Sequence record: MT764208.1
Strand: one strand, 5' to 3'
DNA: 64,000 nt
Origin: Escherichia phage JEP8
The stretch's first letter is position 1; the number at the start of each line of letters is the position of its first letter. A model generated the notes under the pieces. That model was not told the DNA's origin, did not search any database, and saw only the letters and a list, made by a program, of their open reading frames with translations. Below, piece by piece: positions 6,982-36,011 of the stretch. The position numbers and the translations under genes are program-made.

Positions 6982-8451
6982 CTATTCCCCATTACCATTA
7001 TACTTTCTTTGCTTAGTTATCCACACTCTAACCATCTCTACTGATTCACCGTCAGACGGATCAAGAGTTTTTCCTTTTTTCTTCATGCGATACTTAAATC
7101 CGTTAAATCTTGCATTCTCTTGCTCGTTAAAGTCGAACATCTTTTTAAATGATTTTCTCCCTTTACGCTCACCACATTCTAGCGGAATCATTCGGTCTGT
7201 TATTACATTGGCATTAGGTAGAAACGTTTTTAGATAATCCACCAACGCCCAATCAGGAACATATAGATTAACATTCTCCTTGCTCTCGTTGTCTCTCAGG
7301 TTACAACGCAAACATAATTGAAATGCTGGTTCCAGATAATCAGACACATGACGCGCTTTCAAAAACTCGTTTGTCGGGAGATCACAACTATTAGCAAGAC
7401 CTTTTAAAATATCAATCTCCCATCGTTGAGGGTTAAAGCTGAACATCACAGCAACATTTTTATGATGAATGTAAGAGTTAAGACCATAAGATCCGTAAGG
7501 TATCCGCTCACCAATACCATTTGTGCACGCTTCACGGTCCCGATTCACGGTATAAATGAAGTCATCGCCACATTCATTTTTAACCATATCAACAAGACGT
7601 TCAAAGGTATTGTTTGTTTCTGACTGGTGACGCGACCAGCGTTCGGAGTCAGTCATAAGGATGATGTTAACTCTATCTGTATTTTTATACTCTTTGAAAT
7701 ATAGTCTGGATTCTAGCGCACTCGGAACAAAATCGCAATTTGCATAGTATCGTAGATACTTCCCACTATATGTATCAAAGAGATTTGCACATGCTATCGT
7801 AACCTTTTTAAAGTCTCCCCACGTACCGTGTTTGTTATCGTTCAAGAAAACAATTTTCGACCCATTCTTCCGGTGTCCTTCGTTATGTTTTACCATAACG
7901 TTGATTTTCTTCTCTAATAACGCCTCATAAAGCCCTCTAAGAGAAGAATCGATCATATCAGTACCATCCTTTGCACTTTCTATCTTTTCTTTGATAGCGG
8001 CCTTCTCAGAGTCTTTTAGAACTAAGTTCTGTAGGCATTCCGATTCGTCGGCGATTGGTTCGCAATGCTTCGTGATAAGTTCAAGATTAGACTTAAACGG
8101 ATACTCATTAAATTCAACCAGTTGAGGAACTTCATCAATGTAAAGAGCATATTCACCAAACATTTTTGAACGTTCCATATTAGATAACGCTGTATGTGTA
8201 ATGAATATCACATCAGCACCGTCTTTAACTGATTGCATTATCGACGCTTGCACTGTCTTAAGGCTTCTTAGTCTTGTGCTATCGATCAAGACAGCACGAC
8301 CGCCCATTCTTTTAAACTTATTGTAAGATTGTTCACTTAAAACACGAGATGGCGAAGCAATAACCGCTTTTTCTTTTGTCTCTAGGACGTGGGAAAGTAT
8401 AGCATCAGTTTTCCCCGCCGCTGGCAATGCGATTAATGTTTCAATCTTCAT
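6982..8451 (-). CDS. P-loop NTPase of unknown function (helicase-like N-terminal motifs)
   Basis: 489 aa; Walker A-like ALPAAGKT, then IASPSR, Walker B-like ALYIDEV. Occupies the position immediately upstream of gene 55; no alpha-glucosyltransferase-like gene present. Confidence 0.6.
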   Translation of the reverse strand: MKIETLIALPAAGKTDAILSHVLETKEKAVIASPSRVLSEQSYNKFKRMGGRAVLIDSTRLRSLKTVQASIMQSVKDGADVIFITHTALSNMERSKMFGEYALYIDEVPQLVEFNEYPFKSNLELITKHCEPIADESECLQNLVLKDSEKAAIKEKIESAKDGTDMIDSSLRGLYEALLEKKINVMVKHNEGHRKNGSKIVFLNDNKHGTWGDFKKVTIACANLFDTYSGKYLRYYANCDFVPSALESRLYFKEYKNTDRVNIILMTDSERWSRHQSETNNTFERLVDMVKNECGDDFIYTVNRDREACTNGIGERIPYGSYGLNSYIHHKNVAVMFSFNPQRWEIDILKGLANSCDLPTNEFLKARHVSDYLEPAFQLCLRCNLRDNESKENVNLYVPDWALVDYLKTFLPNANVITDRMIPLECGERKGRKSFKKMFDFNEQENARFNGFKYRMKKKGKTLDPSDGESVEMVRVWITKQRKYNGNGE

Positions 8452-11516: not shown

Positions 11517-12020
11517 TCAAATAATTTTCACTGGAATACTATTAACAATCTTGTATTGTACTTGATTGTCAGACCCCCGCCACGGCTTCTTCGTTGGCAT
11601 ATCTTTAATATAACGCCCATCGATGAACATGTCAACTGATTCTACAATTTTTCTTTGCTCATCATTCAATTGGTCAAGGGTATAACCGGACCATAGCCAA
11701 ATATCTTTATTTGGCATCCATGATTTTACTTCATCGATGATCCGCTGTACACCCTTTAAATTGCGTTTATACAGTGGATCGCCACCTAAGAATGTTAGCC
11801 CCTGAATAAAATCAGGACTAAGCAGATCCAGAATCAATCCCATTGTATCATCGGTGAATGGTTCCCCGTTCTTAGGATTGAGTATACTGGAATTAAAACA
11901 ACCATCACATGCGTGTGAACATCCGGTAACGTAAAGGGAGACTCTCACTCCCTCACCGTTAACCATATCACAATCTTTAATATCGGCATAGCGTAGTTTG
12001 CCGTATGTATCAGAACTCAT
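11517..12020 (-). CDS. nrdG: Anaerobic ribonucleotide reductase activating protein (radical SAM)
   Basis: ORF track starts at TTG; ATG at 12018-12020. Radical-SAM cluster motif CSHACDGC (Cx3Cx2C); adjacent to nrdD. Confidence 0.85.
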   Translation of the reverse strand: MSSDTYGKLRYADIKDCDMVNGEGVRVSLYVTGCSHACDGCFNSSILNPKNGEPFTDDTMGLILDLLSPDFIQGLTFLGGDPLYKRNLKGVQRIIDEVKSWMPNKDIWLWSGYTLDQLNDEQRKIVESVDMFIDGRYIKDMPTKKPWRGSDNQVQYKIVNSIPVKII

Positions 12021-12162
12021 ATTCAATTACCCCGAACTCGTTTACAATCTGCGCTTTATAGTAACCACCGCGAGATGCCAATAGATAAGCTGGTCTTAGG
12101 TATTCGTATTCACGGATTTCTACTTGTGCGTTTTCAGTTTCCCAAATCAGTAAAGTCCACAT
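12010..12162 (-). CDS. Small hypothetical protein (50 aa) overlapping nrdG start
   Basis: Below ORF-track cutoff; ATG preceded by the cassette RBS GGAGAATCAAAT; translation MWTLLIWETENAQVEIREYEYL... Confidence 0.3.
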   Translation of the reverse strand: MWTLLIWETENAQVEIREYEYLRPAYLLASRGGYYKAQIVNEFGVIEYEF

Positions 12163-12237: not shown

Positions 12238-12765
12238 TTATTTTAAATTTTTTCGAATGTATTCAGACCATTCCTTCCCTGTCATTTCGGACCCGTTCTG
12301 GAAACTGAAATATTCATAAGGCATCGAGTCAAGATAAAACAGGATCATACATCGCGCCATATAATACCAATCACGATTAAAGTAAACTACGTTATCACCA
12401 GTGCCATCAACCCCTTTATCATAACCATCGCGGGTACGGGCTACCCATTGAATAGTATCAGTTTTCTCACGGATAGTAACAGGTTCCCAATATCCAGCAC
12501 ATCCAGCATGACCACACGAACAAGTAAGGAAGTATTGGCCTTTTGCTTTGTTGTCATCCCATTCACGATGGATTGGTTCGACCTCGTGAAACAGTACCAA
12601 ACAATCATGATTATGCAACACTGGCTTACCATCAATCAATGCATGGAATGTATACAAACGACCAGTAGACAAATAGCTATCCTCACGCTCAACCAGTTCA
12701 ATAGCAATCTTTTTAGCTCGTTCTTTGTGTCGTTGTGCTTTACGCTTACGGTTTAATGATTTCAT
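12238..12765 (-). CDS. Hypothetical protein
   Basis: Start moved to MKSLNRKRK (SD GAGGTGAAT); basic N-terminus, Cys/His-rich middle (CSCGHAGCAGYW). Confidence 0.5.
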   Translation of the reverse strand: MKSLNRKRKAQRHKERAKKIAIELVEREDSYLSTGRLYTFHALIDGKPVLHNHDCLVLFHEVEPIHREWDDNKAKGQYFLTCSCGHAGCAGYWEPVTIREKTDTIQWVARTRDGYDKGVDGTGDNVVYFNRDWYYMARCMILFYLDSMPYEYFSFQNGSEMTGKEWSEYIRKNLK

Positions 12766-12782
12766 ATTCACCTCACACATTA

Positions 12783-13325
12783 TCAAAGGTCGCGATATAG
12801 TACATTATGAAAATGAGAACTTGCATTACCAATATTGTAGATAATAAATTCTTCATCCGGCGCTTGCGCTACAAATTGAGTATGAGCAACCGCCACAACC
12901 TTAAAAATACGATCCGTGATCTTGTGTTTAATTTCTGCCCCTACTTCCATAGGAACATATTCATTTGTTTCTGTTTCAGTCGCAAAACAGCCATCTTCTT
13001 CATAAGCACGAACAAATCGGTCGCAATCAGTACGCTTAACAAATTCAAGAGTATATAATTCTCGTGAATTGTCGGTATAGACCAATACAGAATTATTATG
13101 ATAGCGAATCACATACAGGTTATTATCATCGTCAATTACGCAAAAGCTACGGATTCCTTCGCCTTGACTCCAGCAGATATTAACCACCGTTCCTCTAATA
13201 AAAAAACTTTCCTTTAAATTAAAACTAGTCAATGTGCTAGCGTGCATTTTAACAACAACACCATCGCCAATTTCCAGTTTACGAAGTTTAACTTCTTTGC
13301 TCAGTACACAAAACATCATCATCAT
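12783..13325 (-). CDS. Hypothetical protein
   Basis: 180 aa; SD GAGAGGA before ATG. Confidence 0.5.
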   Translation of the reverse strand: MMMMFCVLSKEVKLRKLEIGDGVVVKMHASTLTSFNLKESFFIRGTVVNICWSQGEGIRSFCVIDDDNNLYVIRYHNNSVLVYTDNSRELYTLEFVKRTDCDRFVRAYEEDGCFATETETNEYVPMEVGAEIKHKITDRIFKVVAVAHTQFVAQAPDEEFIIYNIGNASSHFHNVLYRDL

Positions 13326-13425: not shown

Positions 13426-15288
13426 TTACATGTGCTTAACGCGGTTTACCATCTCGGAGTGTTTCCCGTGGTTAAATGGACGCAGATCAACAGATCCAAG
13501 ATATCCACTAACGCGACGGATAACATTCATCTTTTCCAGATTGTCATTGCCGCAATCAGGGCAAACAAAACCAGACTCGGTCGCTCTCATTTCCTTATTA
13601 GATCCACATACATGACATACATCAGAAGGAGTATTAACACCGAAGTAGTGCAATTTATCCATTGCATAGTCTACTACAGTTTCAAGACCTTTCAGGTTGT
13701 TTTTCATGTCTGGGAACTCAACATAAGAGATCATGCCACCGGACGCCAGCCAGTGATAATCTTTCTCAAAGTCGATTTTCTCAAATGGTGTGACTTTCCG
13801 GTCTACGTCAAGGTGGAATGAGTTGGTGTACCAGTCTTTATCGGTAGCACCCTTAACAATACCAAATTGCTCTCTGTCCAGTCGATTAAATCGATAGCAA
13901 AGGCTCTCGGCTGGCGTACCGTAAAGACTAAACCCAAGTCCGGTTTCATCCTTCCATTTTTCAGTATAATGACGCAAGATCTTAAGAATATGTTTACCGT
14001 ATCGCTGCGCATCTTCCGAATCAAACGGATGAACACCAAACAGGACGCTCAATACCTCATGTAAACCAATATATCCAAGAGAGATACTAGCGCGACCATC
14101 TTTCAACACTTCCAAAATTTCATCGTTTTGATGAATACGGAAAAATGCACCTTCTGTATACAGCACCGGAGCAACATTGGCTTTAGCGCCTTTTAAAGCG
14201 TCTACGCGACTCATGAGCGCATCAAAGCAAATAGGCATACGATTGGCTAGCTCTTGTTCGAATAGCTCAATTCTGCGCATTACAGACGCTTTACCAGCAC
14301 GACGCGCGGCAATAAGGGCAATACGCGGAAGATTCAGAGTCACAACACCTAAGTTATTACGTCCGTCTAATACTTCTTCTCCTTTCTCATTATGCCACAC
14401 ACCCAGGAAGCTACGACAACCCATCGGGCTAACCGGAACACTAGATCCGGTGATACTACGGTTATTCTTCGCAGAGATATAATCAGGGTAAAGACGCTTA
14501 CTAGAACATTCCAATGCAAGTTGCTTAATGTCGTAGTTCGGATCTTCCGGTTTAAGGTTTAATCCTTCTTCTAAGAACATCACCAGCTTAGGAAACACCG
14601 GAGTGATACCATCTTTACCTAAACCTTTAGTTCGAACGTTCAGGATCGCTTTCTGAATCAGTTTTTCTTCCCAGCTAGTACCCATACCAAAGGTTAAAGT
14701 CACAAAAGGCGTTTGACCGTTGGTGGAGAACAAAGTGTTGATTTCATATTCCAACGCTTGATACCCGTCTAAAGTTTCTTTTTCTGTCTTCTCTTGTGCA
14801 TAGAGAGTATCAGCTTTGATTCCGTAGGTTTCGGCATCAGCAAGGTGTTTATGATATGTTTTCTCAACATACGGTGCTAACACCTGATCGATGTTTGCGA
14901 TTGTGGTCCCTCCATATTGATGACTTGCCACCTGTGCGATAATTTGAGCGGTCACAGCACATGCAACACCGATCGATTTAGGACTTTCGATTTGTGCGCT
15001 ACCCAATTTAAAACCATTCTCTAACATGTCTTTGAGATTAACAAGACAGCAGTTAGTAAACGGCATAGCGGGTGCATAATCCATATCATGATAATGAATA
15101 TCACCGTCTACATGCGCTTTATAGATGTGCTCAGGTAACACGGTTTTAGCAATCTGTTTAGACACAGCACCAGCAATCAGATCTCGACGTGTCGGGAATG
15201 TTCGCGCGTCTTTGTTCGCGTTCTCTTTACTTACTTCGTTTTCTTTACCCGTTGCGATCTCTGTAATGTCTTTGATTAGTTTTTCCAT
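13426..15288 (-). CDS. nrdD: Anaerobic ribonucleoside-triphosphate reductase
   Basis: 620 aa; C-terminal glycyl-radical motif RVSGYLG and Zn-ribbon cysteines (CHVCGS...CPDCG); uninterrupted ORF. Confidence 0.92.
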   Translation of the reverse strand: MEKLIKDITEIATGKENEVSKENANKDARTFPTRRDLIAGAVSKQIAKTVLPEHIYKAHVDGDIHYHDMDYAPAMPFTNCCLVNLKDMLENGFKLGSAQIESPKSIGVACAVTAQIIAQVASHQYGGTTIANIDQVLAPYVEKTYHKHLADAETYGIKADTLYAQEKTEKETLDGYQALEYEINTLFSTNGQTPFVTLTFGMGTSWEEKLIQKAILNVRTKGLGKDGITPVFPKLVMFLEEGLNLKPEDPNYDIKQLALECSSKRLYPDYISAKNNRSITGSSVPVSPMGCRSFLGVWHNEKGEEVLDGRNNLGVVTLNLPRIALIAARRAGKASVMRRIELFEQELANRMPICFDALMSRVDALKGAKANVAPVLYTEGAFFRIHQNDEILEVLKDGRASISLGYIGLHEVLSVLFGVHPFDSEDAQRYGKHILKILRHYTEKWKDETGLGFSLYGTPAESLCYRFNRLDREQFGIVKGATDKDWYTNSFHLDVDRKVTPFEKIDFEKDYHWLASGGMISYVEFPDMKNNLKGLETVVDYAMDKLHYFGVNTPSDVCHVCGSNKEMRATESGFVCPDCGNDNLEKMNVIRRVSGYLGSVDLRPFNHGKHSEMVNRVKHM

Positions 15289-27376: not shown

Positions 27377-27445
27377 AAGTCATTCCCCCAGATTTAAAAA
27401 TATTCAGTTATATTTATAATCTGGGGCTTTATTTATGATTAACTC

Positions 27446-31518: not shown

Positions 31519-32217
31519 CTAACCACGGGTATAGTGTTCCAGAACAACTGTCAGATGAATATATTCTAATAGATCTTTCCAAAAGTCAACATCTGGTTCT
31601 TCCGGCATACCGTTTTTCTTTGCCTCTTCACGAGCGAGTTTAACACGCTCGTAGAGATCTTTCAATTCTTCCCGCACATTATCAAAGGTTCTTTCTCCTA
31701 ACTTACACGCTAAAATCGAAGAACGTCTCGCGAGCGGGAATTGTATATCACCTGTCTGATAGATTTCAAGTAGCTGATAACCAACACGCAGAGCATGAGA
31801 AAGATCTTTCCAGTTACTGAAATACTTTTCAGATTTGGCTACCTGTTTCTTGAGATAACCAGACAAACCCCACATACCAACATGATAGAATTTATCGCGA
31901 TGTGTTCGGATGTATTCCCATTCTCTGGAGGATTCAACCAACATGTTACTAGGCGCGTGCACCATGTCAATAGCACCGATATCGCCTTTACATGCCAGAT
32001 TGATAAACCGTTTTAGACTGAACATATTAACGTCAATATCGTCTTTGGTGTTCTTGATACCTTGACCGCTAGTGCTTTGGTCATAGTGTTCTTTCATCGA
32101 TCCTAAGATAATTTCTTTCGCAGTCGGAACAAAGATACCACGATAATCTTTATCGGAATTTTCAGTATCAAGGCCGTATAAGTGAGACCCGAAGACCATT
32201 TTAACCATTGTATGCAT
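31519..32217 (-). CDS. Predicted nucleotidyltransferase (Pol-beta-like fold)
   Basis: 232 aa; N-terminal VFGSHLYGLDTENSDKDYRGIF fits the G[GS]x9-13 D-x-[DE] signature; SD GAGGG. Confidence 0.55.
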   Translation of the reverse strand: MHTMVKMVFGSHLYGLDTENSDKDYRGIFVPTAKEIILGSMKEHYDQSTSGQGIKNTKDDIDVNMFSLKRFINLACKGDIGAIDMVHAPSNMLVESSREWEYIRTHRDKFYHVGMWGLSGYLKKQVAKSEKYFSNWKDLSHALRVGYQLLEIYQTGDIQFPLARRSSILACKLGERTFDNVREELKDLYERVKLAREEAKKNGMPEEPDVDFWKDLLEYIHLTVVLEHYTRG

Positions 32218-32303
32218 AATTAAACCCTCAGTTGATTAAGAGATTGCATCATACCATCATAAAAATAAAAAGCCAACCCTTTTCGGATTGGCTTGATGAA
32301 AAA

Positions 32304-32720
32304 TTAGAGAGATTCGGTAAAGGTACGAGCGATAACATCACGTTGCTGGTCTGGAGTCAGACTATTGAAGCGCACTGCGTAACCAGAAACGCGAATTGTA
32401 AGCTGCGGGTACTTCTCAGGATGTTCAACAGCGTCCAGCAACATTTCTCGTAACAATACATTAACATTCAAATGCTGACCACCTTCGACAACCGGAGCAC
32501 CATTATCTACAATGACAGGACGGAAGCTAGTTGTGTGCAGTGCCAGCGAATCGACGTCTTCTGCGGTGATCACATGGTCTTCTGCGAAAGTTTTACTAAC
32601 AATTACTTTAGCACCGATCAGTGCTTTCGGTTCGGATACCAGAATCATAGGCGCGAAGTGTCCACCAATAATAGTACCTTTATGCTCACCTTTCATGATT
32701 TGAATTGCTTTAAATTCCAT
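32304..32720 (-). CDS. grcA: Autonomous glycyl-radical cofactor (GrcA/YfiD-like)
   Basis: 138 aa; C-terminus [11 protein letters not shown]...[39 protein letters not shown] nearly identical to E. coli GrcA as recalled; glycyl-radical motif RVSGYAV. Confidence 0.85.
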
Positions 32721-32855
32721 AATTCACCTCTTATAGATCAGGACGTTCGTCATTAACTTTTCCAACCAAAACACCATAGAGTTTATCAGGTTGGACTTTA
32801 CGATTCTTTTTAATTGTAGCACGAAATCGACGAGCTACGCTATCTTTATTTTTCA

Positions 32856-33341
32856 TTAGTTGATACCTAAGCCAATGAAAATAGGTTGGTCTTCTACATT
32901 ACCCATCCCAACACTAAGTCGATTCACTTCTAAAAACTGCAATACGCTGTCAGTAAATCCGCGCATGGTAGTATCTAGGATAAAAATTGTTTTGTCAAGA
33001 CTACGACCTCGCCATGTGATCGGATTCAGGAAAGTTCGGATCGACGTACAATCTACATTTGAAATATTTACATTTTCACCGCGACCGCGATCTCGGATCG
33101 TTTTGGCATGTTCCCGCGTCGTTGAAACGATAAAGACACTATAGCCTTTTCTAGTATAATGGTCATATAACTTGATTGTAGCGTCTGTATGCCCTGTCTG
33201 ACGTCCTAAATTGATTGAGACGATGGAATCTAGGTCATCAGCAAAATTGCGTCGCTTACGACGTTCTATGATGCCATTTACGGCAGATACACACGCAGCA
33301 TAAATCAAATCTTTACTTTCTAATTTTACATCAATATTCAT
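32856..33341 (-). CDS. Hypothetical protein
   Basis: 161 aa; SD GGAG. Confidence 0.5.
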   Translation of the reverse strand: MNIDVKLESKDLIYAACVSAVNGIIERRKRRNFADDLDSIVSINLGRQTGHTDATIKLYDHYTRKGYSVFIVSTTREHAKTIRDRGRGENVNISNVDCTSIRTFLNPITWRGRSLDKTIFILDTTMRGFTDSVLQFLEVNRLSVGMGNVEDQPIFIGLGIN

Positions 33342-33403: not shown

Positions 33404-33793
33404 TTATTTTGGATCTGGGTATTTGCTGTGTGGTAATTGTAGATGAGGACCATCTTTAAAACTAGTCCAATCCCCACCCCATTCAACAGGAACACCCAAT
33501 TCTCGACCAGCTTGTTTAAATGCATCAGCGATCATGCGGTAATATTTCATGTTCCATGTATCTTTATCTTTCGGATACGCTACAACGTCAACCGCGAAAC
33601 CGTGAAGATGACGAGATTTCATAGTCTTAGATTTACCTTCCGCAACATATTTCTTTTGCGTTTCTAGACTACGCACACCTTCCGTAATACCAAAATCGAC
33701 CGGAGTCAGTTCTAATGCACGATGAACGACTTTTACCAGGTCTGGATGTACACCAACAAGCCGATCTTTGCTTCTTTGAGATAATCTAAACAT
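33404..33793 (-). CDS. Endolysin, L-alanyl-D-glutamate peptidase (peptidase M15, T5-like)
   Basis: 129 aa; VHPDLVKVVHRALELTPVDFGITEGVRS...SRHLHGFAVDV...WGGDW resembles T5-type endolysin; HxxxxxxD and H motifs for Zn binding. Confidence 0.75.
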   Translation of the reverse strand: MFRLSQRSKDRLVGVHPDLVKVVHRALELTPVDFGITEGVRSLETQKKYVAEGKSKTMKSRHLHGFAVDVVAYPKDKDTWNMKYYRMIADAFKQAGRELGVPVEWGGDWTSFKDGPHLQLPHSKYPDPK

Positions 33794-33821: not shown

Positions 33822-34013
33822 TTAGATTCCTGCAATCCTGCATAGAGTTCTTGTATTAGCACCAATCAGGATAGCATTGACTACAACCATTCCCCAATCA
33901 ACCCACGGATTATTATAAATGCTAAATCCGTTTGTTATGCCAAATACAAGCATTCCGGTACACATACTCAGAGCAATAATCAACATCACGGTAAAACCAA
34001 ATGCAAATTTCAT
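33822..34013 (-). CDS. Small membrane protein
   Basis: 63 aa, two hydrophobic helices. Confidence 0.45.
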   Translation of the reverse strand: MKFAFGFTVMLIIALSMCTGMLVFGITNGFSIYNNPWVDWGMVVVNAILIGANTRTLCRIAGI

Positions 34014-34014
34014 A

Positions 34015-34281
34015 TTATTTTCCTTTTCTCTGTTTACGTTTATAAAAGTAATACATTACCTCATCGCGTCCGGTGATCCAACATGCTAGGGCAGTAAACA
34101 GGTTTACAATTCCCAACACACCTACTGACGCGGCGCTGTCAACAGACATAGGAACAGTAAAGGCCATAGCTAACATAGCAATGCCACAAATGACATTAAG
34201 CACCATTATAATAAGACCGAAGAAAACCATTGTCAATCCTCCCAAATAAGAAAACCAACAATCACGCCAGTGATAAGACAT
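34015..34281 (-). CDS. Small membrane protein
   Basis: 88 aa, hydrophobic, basic C-terminus. Confidence 0.45.
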   Translation of the reverse strand: MSYHWRDCWFSYLGGLTMVFFGLIIMVLNVICGIAMLAMAFTVPMSVDSAASVGVLGIVNLFTALACWITGRDEVMYYFYKRKQRKGK

Positions 34282-34412
34282 GATGCGCCGCTAATAAGAC
34301 AACCAGCACCAAGTGATTCCCACCAGATCAGAGAAGCGACAATAACGCAAATTCCCCAGACTACCGCAATCACAACATAGGCAAGGGTCGCCCAAAACAT
34401 ATATTTGTTCAT
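34233..34412 (-). CDS. Small membrane protein (59 aa)
   Basis: Below ORF-track cutoff; ATG overlaps the upstream stop in ATGA; MNKYMFWATLAYVVIAVVWGICVIVASLIWW... Confidence 0.4.
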   Translation of the reverse strand: MNKYMFWATLAYVVIAVVWGICVIVASLIWWESLGAGCLISGASCLITGVIVGFLIWED

Positions 34413-34597
34413 AATAAACCCAACTCACCAAACAAATAAGAAAAAAGCCATATCAACAGAAACGAGGCAATTGATCCGACAAGCAAAATGATATTAGAGA
34501 ATCCACCGTCTACCCAGGCAACAAAACAGAATACGCTAGTATAGAAGCATAAACCCATTACAAAGCATACTATAAGCAACCATAGATAAAACGTCAT
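34409..34597 (-). CDS. Small membrane protein
   Basis: 62 aa, hydrophobic. Confidence 0.45.
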   Translation of the reverse strand: MTFYLWLLIVCFVMGLCFYTSVFCFVAWVDGGFSNIILLVGSIASFLLIWLFSYLFGELGLL

Positions 34598-35432: not shown

Positions 35433-35633
35433 CTAAAATTTGTTAACGACGAATTGCATAATTAGACTAATCATAAACATTGCAAACCAAGTATAAATGC
35501 AACAGATAAAAGCTACATACAATTCAATCTGGTCAGAGAATACACCGGGTAAAAGCATTAGCAAAATAACAACAGTAAAGACGCTAGCGATACCCGCAAC
35601 AAAACCAATATCATTTTTACTAATCGTCATCAA
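35433..35633 (-). CDS. Small membrane protein
   Basis: 66 aa, two hydrophobic helices. Confidence 0.45.
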   Translation of the reverse strand: MMTISKNDIGFVAGIASVFTVVILLMLLPGVFSDQIELYVAFICCIYTWFAMFMISLIMQFVVNKF

Positions 35634-35827
35634 GTCACCGTTTTGTAAAGAAACACAATAAAATCCAAGACAAGAAAGACAGTGTAAATGATCATCGTCA
35701 AGACAGTAAACACTGTCAAATTTTCATCGTTAGTTAATTCATAGTCGCCCATCCATACAATAACAAGATATAGCATTGAAAGAATGGAAGCACCTACTAA
35801 GTTAAAAAACATATTCTTTAGCGTCAT
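35630..35827 (-). CDS. Small membrane protein
   Basis: 65 aa; ATGA overlap with upstream gene. Confidence 0.45.
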   Translation of the reverse strand: MTLKNMFFNLVGASILSMLYLVIVWMGDYELTNDENLTVFTVLTMIIYTVFLVLDFIVFLYKTVT

Positions 35828-35828
35828 G

Positions 35829-36011
35829 TTAACAATCCTCGCGGCTTAAGTCAACAGCAATTGCATACAGAATAATGAATATACTAGCAGATCCGAGAAT
35901 CAATGCACCGTCACATTTTGAAACTCGCTCATCAAAATGCAACATTATCCATCCGAGGATGTTAAAGGCGCACACCGCGCCTATGTTATCTAACCAATTA
36001 ATCTTTTTCAT
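35829..36011 (-). CDS. Small membrane protein
   Basis: 60 aa, hydrophobic. Confidence 0.4.
   Translation of the reverse strand: MKKINWLDNIGAVCAFNILGWIMLHFDERVSKCDGALILGSASIFIILYAIAVDLSREDC

Follow-up and report, generated by a model that had tools for sequence, protein, structure and literature searches.

A probable autonomous glycyl radical cofactor gene of the T4 vs.6 family in an RB49-like Escherichia phage

The vs.6 gene and its neighbourhood

The window studied here is a 64,000-nt stretch of DNA from Escherichia phage JEP8 (record MT764208.1), a Krischvirus (RB49-like) 98.8% identical to phage kaaroe. Its minus strand carries an intact ORF with an ATG at 32718–32720 and a TAA at 32304–32306, encoding a protein of 138 aa (15.2 kDa). 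The gene is named vs.6 in RB49 and Phi1, autonomous glycyl radical cofactor in kaaroe, and GrcA in kaaroe, T4 and JK32; in what follows we use the name vs.6. The gene, its parts, its expression signals and the two genes upstream of it are:

32304–32720, minus strand: vs.6, putative autonomous glycyl radical cofactor gene of the vs.6/Y06I type (ORF list, Pfam, PDB sequences, PHROG)
32493–32720, minus strand: phage-type N-terminal region, residues 1–76 (alignments, model)
32307–32492, minus strand: C-terminal glycyl-radical domain, residues 77–138, corresponding to PflB 698–759 and GrcA 66–127 (alignment, model)
32373–32393, minus strand: glycyl-radical motif RVSGYAV, residues 110–116 (read from the sequence)
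32725–32732, minus strand: Shine-Dalgarno sequence AAGAGGTG (read from the sequence and ORF list)
32260–32294, minus strand: intrinsic terminator, a 10-bp stem AAGCCAATCC/GGGTTGGCTT followed by a T-run (terminator scan)
32731–32856, minus strand: 41-aa ORF upstream of vs.6 (ORF, PHROG)
32856–33341, minus strand: vs.8-like gene, 161 aa (ORF, PHROG)

The Shine-Dalgarno sequence is strong; 4 nt separate it from the ATG, and it shares bases with the stop codon of the 41-aa ORF upstream. On the other side of the gene a GC-rich terminator hairpin begins 10 nt past the stop codon, with a predicted RNA fold of −17.9 kcal/mol (z = −2.96); the same element carries a terminator annotation in phages GEC-3S and G5211, and it appears to close a unit made up of the vs.8-like gene, the 41-aa ORF and vs.6. 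There is no T4-type late promoter (TATAAATA) near vs.6, the nearest in the window being at 27411 and 37583. Matches to sigma-70-like promoters around the gene numbered 14, against a shuffled expectation of 8.1 ± 3.3, and since this is not far above expectation no promoter was assigned to vs.6. One TG-extended sigma-70-like match, at 32276–32248, overlaps the terminator.

Across 1.9 kb around vs.6, identity to the 25 Krischvirus coliphage records that match best (kaaroe, GEC-3S, Phi1, RB49 and others) is 97.8–98.8%, and the vs.6 protein itself is 100% identical to a protein of phage Skers and 99.3% identical to RB49 vs.6. The 161-aa protein is weakly homologous to T4 vs.8 (26% identity, E = 2e-6); between them, this protein and the 41-aa ORF match PHROGs 1488 and 13848, and the order of vs.8-like gene, 41-aa ORF and vs.6 parallels the T4 order vs.8-vs.7-vs.6. 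The match of vs.6 to PHROG 1209 covers the full length (E = 3.4e-51, residues 3–138 against profile positions 1–121 of 121). This full-length match and the position in the early region, downstream of vs.8, place the gene in the T4-like vs.6 family. With about 60% identity to T4 Y06I over 98% of the length, it would, judged by sequence, be the RB49-lineage orthologue of T4 Y06I/vs.6. Relatives are widespread: tblastn found them in 1580 records of phages; T4-like, T5-like and jumbo types are represented, and the hosts include Escherichia, Salmonella, Klebsiella, Yersinia, Aeromonas and Vibrio. Many of these genes are annotated as GrcA or ‘pyruvate formate-lyase’.

Directly downstream of vs.6 lies a nrdC.11-type nucleotidyltransferase gene (31519–32217, minus strand) matching Pfam RlaP (E = 2.2e-14), the RNA-repair-pathway DNA polymerase beta family. 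Upstream of the vs.8-like gene, the endolysin gene at 33404–33793 (minus strand) encodes a product of the Peptidase_M15_4 family (E = 4.4e-12), not a T4 e-type lysozyme. In phage JK32 the region just upstream of vs.8 is wholly different, holding an AP2/ERF-annotated ORF, with identity to the window at background level. Runs of small (54–88 aa), very hydrophobic ORFs, probably encoding membrane proteins, occupy 33822–34597 and 35433–36011 (minus strand), downstream and upstream of the lysis and early-gene region.

Radical domain and N-terminal half

The sole Pfam match of vs.6 is to Gly_radical (PF01228), at residues 78–119 (E = 1.5e-16; 61.3 bits against a cut-off of 22.2). Among PDB sequences searched with phmmer, the best match is E. 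coli GrcA/YfiD (6OWR; E = 5.8e-33, residues 37–138 against 29–127), and PflB (1H16, 1CM5) is matched at E of about 6e-27 by residues 77–138 against 698–759. In the last 62 residues, 56 are identical to E. coli K-12 GrcA and 50 to PflB. A preliminary description of this locus had called the C-terminal 60 residues nearly identical to GrcA/YfiD, and the count bears this out, at 92% identity with the K-12 protein. It had also named absence of the radical motif as grounds for giving up the idea; the motif is intact at residues 110–116, with the radical glycine at Gly113 (codon GGT, 32382–32384). The heptapeptide RVSGYAV is the same in vs.6, GrcA, PflB and T4 Y06I, and in an alignment of 37 diverse homologues it is invariant, as are 25 columns of the radical domain. 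A GrcA-like identity of this extent cannot be due to chance.

The AlphaFold model of the protein has a mean pLDDT of 79.6 and a pTM of 0.46, with pLDDT reaching 88–94 across residues 91–130. Its top Foldseek matches in the PDB are 6OWR (YfiD) and 2PFL/1CM5 (PFL), which match the C-terminal domain only; ribosomal and KOW-like matches to the whole chain (E > 0.3) were taken as noise. The protein is of the small (~14 kDa) stand-alone kind in which no domain other than the radical domain is recognisable, and it has the PFL-type RVSGYAV loop, the sequence that PFL-activating enzyme binds. By sequence and model, its radical domain appears near enough to PflB 698–759 to substitute for it. Comparison with GrcA and PflB gave dN of 0.07–0.13 with dS saturated, and dN/dS of about 0.05 against pflB; purifying selection acts strongly on the radical glycine and the residues around it.

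The N-terminal half is of another character. Residues 1–76 are only 15–20% identical to the N-termini of bacterial GrcA and about 30% identical to the T4 type, and carry the motifs GEHKGTI and IVSKTF.ED, in that order; both are common to T4-type and jumbo-phage homologues and missing from bacterial GrcA. RB49-type proteins have in addition an N-terminal insertion of ~18 residues relative to T4 Y06I. AlphaFold predicts short beta strands in this region at pLDDT 59–86, and Foldseek returned no significant PDB fold match for the N-terminal half. Since this half is unlike both GrcA and T4 Y06I, and holds an insertion, docking or regulation could differ from theirs.

The phage-specific half also accounts for a shortfall against the equivalog model NCBIfam TIGR04365 (spare_glycyl), where vs.6 scores 133.8 bits against a cut-off of 170 and matches with residues 37–138 only. 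T4 Y06I, which is biochemically validated, likewise fails at 151.1 bits, and E. coli GrcA passes at 234; the cut-off therefore delimits bacterial GrcA and not the phage branch, and we do not count the shortfall as evidence against function.

Host DNA and homing endonucleases around the 3′ half

The comparisons in this section use the following features:

7558–7920 of the T4 sequence (L002): T4 vs.6, compared with E. coli K-12 grcA at 1067–1450 of L003
~32231–32260 of the window: vs.6/nrdC.11 intergenic region, the endonuclease insertion site of relatives
1965–2495 of L005 and 1965–2558 of L006: HNH/NUMOD4 endonuclease genes of relatives

Of the window vs.6, nothing but the 3′ 185 nt had a match in a sensitive blastn search of 5426 complete E. 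coli genomes, at 75% identity at best. The best DNA match was pflB in all 5426 genomes, and tdcE was also matched. Over the last 60–62 codons, DNA identity is 73–74% with the grcA and pflB genes of E. coli and with Nissabacter grcA; the GrcA proteins of Nissabacter (P0062) and Chimaeribacter, each with 57 of 60 residues identical, have the most similar bacterial radical domains in the alignment. About 60% of conserved codons differ synonymously between the window gene and the bacterial genes, and dS is saturated. GC and GC3 are homogeneous along the gene, at 0.44 and 0.37 in the 5′ half and 0.46 and 0.40 in the 3′ half, near the phage-wide average of 0.40. Among the best 120 protein matches, none joins a bacterial-type N-terminus to an identical C-terminus. 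The nucleotide identity of 73–74% to E. coli grcA and pflB, the saturated synonymous sites and the phage-like GC exclude, for the window phage, the recent host capture that the preliminary description had put forward for scrutiny; capture from E. coli in particular was rejected on the DNA identity of at most 75% and the even GC and GC3.

The T4 allele has a different history. In DNA it matches E. coli K-12 grcA at 98% over the last 60 codons (dS 0.07), and this segment has sharp edges, one at the EGGQH codons and the other five bases short of the stop codon. Composition shifts along the T4 gene from GC 0.33 (GC3 0.18) in the 5′ part to 0.48 (GC3 0.42) in the 3′ part. These features indicate that the T4 3′ segment probably arose by a recent host-to-phage gene conversion, one absent from the window allele: the T4 3′ module has host-like GC and 98% identity to E. 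coli grcA, whereas that of the window has 73% and a phage-like composition.

Among RB49 relatives the 3′ half of vs.6 is a mosaic hot spot. Some proteins, from metagenomes and phages, equal the window protein at every one of the first 66 residues, yet over the last 60 their identity to it is only 65–72%. At the DNA level, 011D4 and JK32 are 97–100% identical to the window on the flanks and 57–80% identical across ~32294–32504 (32294–32473 for 011D4). Both have a free-standing HNH/NUMOD4 homing-endonuclease gene of 0.53–0.59 kb between the vs.6 terminator and nrdC.11. Two different endonuclease genes occur, each paired with its own recoded vs.6 3′ allele: the 011D4 type is found in JSE, Whisky and 011D4, with a related form (80% identity) in phiS, and the JK32 type in nine records, with JK32, MIZ4 and AV108 among the carriers. 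The vs.6 3′ allele is replaced in all 13 of 13 records with an HNH gene just downstream, and the window has the endonuclease-free RB49 allele. A strict coupling of diverged allele to endonuclease gene was rejected, as it is broken by two phages that have no endonuclease gene: the allele is of the 011D4 type in KFS-EC and a chimera in kvi, where only gene nt 249–283 are 011D4-like. The pattern is the one to be expected of homing-endonuclease co-conversion with later loss. JSE has been described as having more homing endonuclease genes than RB49 (PMC2993671).

We offer tentatively, as a possibility to which we give rather less than even weight, that selfish and host DNA drive recombination at the 3′ half of vs.6, making it a hot spot, and that in RB49-like phages this half holds the putative cleavage target of the HNH/NUMOD4 enzymes. 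Genomes with the endonuclease gene would then bring along a 3′ allele that is recoded and ‘immune’ yet remains functional, and co-conversion would account for chimeras like the kvi allele. The window allele, being endonuclease-free, would presumably be cleavable, and in T4 the matching segment has been overwritten by E. coli grcA itself.

Function, rival readings and known systems

We consider it likely, with good confidence, that vs.6 encodes a working autonomous glycyl radical cofactor of the phage type, orthologous in the RB49 lineage to Y06I/vs.6 of T4. By the account of Andorfer et al. (2021, PMC8683613), who cite Wagner et al. (2001), E. coli YfiD and T4 Y06I are the only two validated spare part proteins; PFL-activating enzyme puts a glycyl radical on each, and each, once activated, complexes with oxygen-cleaved PFL and restores its activity. 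The preliminary description's reading of vs.6 as a GrcA-like protein that rescues PFL thus coincides with the function established by experiment for its T4 homologue, as described there. Elsewhere it is reported that the radical passes from GrcA G102 to PflB C419, and that GrcA acts in vivo on full-length inactive PflB-G734A (PMC12338860).

By analogy with these proteins, host PflA would recognise the RVSGYAV loop and, using SAM, take a hydrogen from Gly113, whereupon the 15-kDa phage protein would carry a stable glycyl radical. Where host PflB has been cleaved by oxygen at Gly734, or is otherwise radical-less, the phage radical domain would dock at the place of the lost PflB C-terminal domain and re-supply the radical to Cys419, so that pyruvate would again be turned into acetyl-CoA and formate. 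Both steps have been shown by others for T4 Y06I and would carry over to the window orthologue. The benefit to the phage, we infer, would be that fermentative ATP and acetyl-CoA production keeps going in hosts that see oxygen transients, and that formate supply is maintained, formate being the reductant that class III ribonucleotide reductases, of which the phage NrdD is one, usually employ; it is the source of reducing equivalents for most characterised members of that class (PMC4493059). What the data from the window show is gene integrity, homology, motif conservation, purifying selection and expression signals. A literature search for an infection phenotype or benefit of any phage GrcA or vs.6 found none, and a review of T4 genomes does not mention vs.6.

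The genes on which the NrdD link turns are:

13426–15288, minus strand: nrdD, class III ribonucleotide reductase, 620 aa (Pfam NRDD, E = 2.6e-175)
11517–12026, minus strand: nrdG, radical-SAM activase of NrdD, 169 aa (Pfam Fer4_12, E = 1.4e-43)

The Radical_SAM Pfam match of NrdG is sub-threshold (23.1 bits against 29.5), and in kaaroe the gene bears the annotation of an NrdG homologue. Vs.6 had been placed alongside NrdD/NrdG; all three genes do lie in the window on the same strand, but they are not adjacent: the distance from vs.6 is 17.0 kb for nrdD and 20.3 kb for nrdG, and dozens of small early ORFs lie in the gap. NrdD has a complete Gly_radical domain (residues 496–598, loop RRVSGYLG, Gly595), with a Zn-ribbon (Pfam A2L_zn_ribbon, 557–581) adjoining the radical loop. 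At residues 590–598 the window and RB49-type NrdD read PFL-like RRVSGYLG, and T4 NrdD reads RRTCGYLG. Between nrdG and nrdD, at 12238–13325 on the minus strand, are two ORFs (182 and 180 aa) in the place that the homing endonuclease gene mobC has in T4; neither has a Pfam match, and both are hypothetical in kaaroe.

Three other readings of vs.6 compete with that of a PFL repair part. The protein might be a modulator, competing with GrcA and PflB for PflA, or occupying PflB or TdcE, and so throttling or redirecting fermentation; in a variant of this reading its main target would be full-length PflB that carries no radical, or TdcE, and not cleaved PflB. Three points speak for it: phages share an N-terminal half (GEHKGTI) of their own, a hint of an interaction adapted to the phage; GrcA is able to act on full-length inactive PflB-G734A in vivo (PMC12338860); and tdcE is the third E. 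coli locus that vs.6 matches. We nevertheless judge a modulator unlikely: T4 Y06I, which shares the phage-type N-terminal motif, restored PFL activity in vitro (PMC8683613), and the strong purifying selection at the radical glycine would be needless in a pure decoy. Far less probable still is that vs.6 is a recently captured host fragment without adapted function, or a mere landing site for homing endonucleases. Host DNA does enter vs.6, as the 98% identity of the T4 3′ 180 nt to E. coli grcA shows, and the 3′ half has been exchanged beside homing-endonuclease insertions in RB49 relatives. Yet the 3′ module of the window gene stands at only 73–74% to the E. coli grcA and pflB and Nissabacter grcA genes with synonymous sites saturated, in GC and GC3 it is like the remainder of the gene and the phage, and the protein is conserved, motif intact, in more than 1000 phage genomes.

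Oxygen cleaves NrdD, like PflB, at its glycyl radical, which speaks for the idea that vs.6 is a spare radical domain or donor for the phage's own NrdD. The window NrdD, moreover, has the PFL-like pentapeptide RVSGY where T4 NrdD has RTCGY, and spare parts for further glycyl radical enzymes are a matter of speculation in PMC8683613. We give this reading the slightest chance of all, and the preliminary suggestion of a radical donor module for NrdD does not survive comparison of the two proteins. BLASTP of vs.6 against the window NrdD finds nothing beyond RVSGY (E > 1), as against 81% to the PflB and 90% to the GrcA radical domain; vs.6 is without the NrdD-type Zn-ribbon; the window NrdD is intact, with a radical domain of its own; and the genes are 17 kb apart. 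T4 carries vs.6 and yet has the RTCGY form of NrdD, so that the motif match does not track presence of the gene. With neither similarity to the NrdD C-terminus beyond RVSGY nor adjacency to nrdD or nrdG, vs.6 does not qualify as an NrdD accessory. A metabolic link, in which PFL would supply formate to NrdD, appears better grounded than a physical one. It is also conceivable, with lower probability than the 3′ hot spot, that the phage NrdG, whose own substrate reads RVSGY, could activate vs.6 and give independence from host PflA.

The finding amounts to re-discovery of a known and already annotated phage gene family, characterised biochemically in 2001 (T4 Y06I) and routinely annotated as GrcA in phage genomes; it is real but ordinary, because a phage version of GrcA was already known. 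Even so, it illustrates well how an auxiliary metabolic gene of a phage may repair, not replace, a host enzyme, and suggests that many enterobacterial phages invest in fermentative pyruvate cleavage under fluctuating oxygen, as in the gut. The path from PFL through formate to NrdD offers a concrete, testable reason for the co-occurrence of vs.6 with nrdD and nrdG. The gene conversion from the host in T4 and the allele replacement at the endonuclease insertion site in RB49 relatives may be of interest for the mosaicism of T4-like phages and fit known principles. What remains new is the N-terminal insertion peculiar to RB49-type proteins, any phenotype in infection and the way the 3′ module recombines.

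The closest known system is T4 Y06I (vs.6, NP_049730, 120 aa; RefSeq name GrcA), which shares with the window gene its family, PHROG 1209 and its neighbourhood. The radical domains are identical at 54 of 62 positions, RVSGYAV is present in both, and so is the phage-type motif at the N-terminus (G.HKGTI ... IVSKTF.ED). The insertion in the N-terminal half makes the window protein longer by 18 residues, and vs.6 is followed by nrdC.11 in RB49-type genomes and by vs.5 in T4. E. coli GrcA/YfiD (P68066, 127 aa; NMR structure 6OWR) is likewise a small stand-alone glycyl-radical domain protein, and the C-terminal fold predicted for vs.6 matches its structure. The N-terminal ~35 residues of vs.6 are, however, unrelated in sequence to the AANDDLLNSFWLLD-type start of bacterial GrcA, and several radical-domain positions (REMLLDA) agree with PflB and not with GrcA. 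GrcA2 and GrcA3 (NCBIfam NF008341 and NF038360; ~80 aa) and the T5-like phage ORFs called ‘pyruvate formate-lyase’ are short bacterial and phage variants that share the radical domain and are missing most or all of the N-terminal half; vs.6 scores 106 bits with NF038360 and 85 bits with NF008341, below their cut-offs of 158 and 145. The T5-like phage ORFs align with vs.6 from residue 51 or 65 onwards, at 62–73% identity. In PflB the C-terminal domain (~698–759) is identical to vs.6 at 50 of 62 positions, the Gly734 loop included, and TdcE is also related; vs.6 is without the ~700-residue catalytic barrel of PflB that bears Cys418/Cys419, and is therefore no enzyme on its own.
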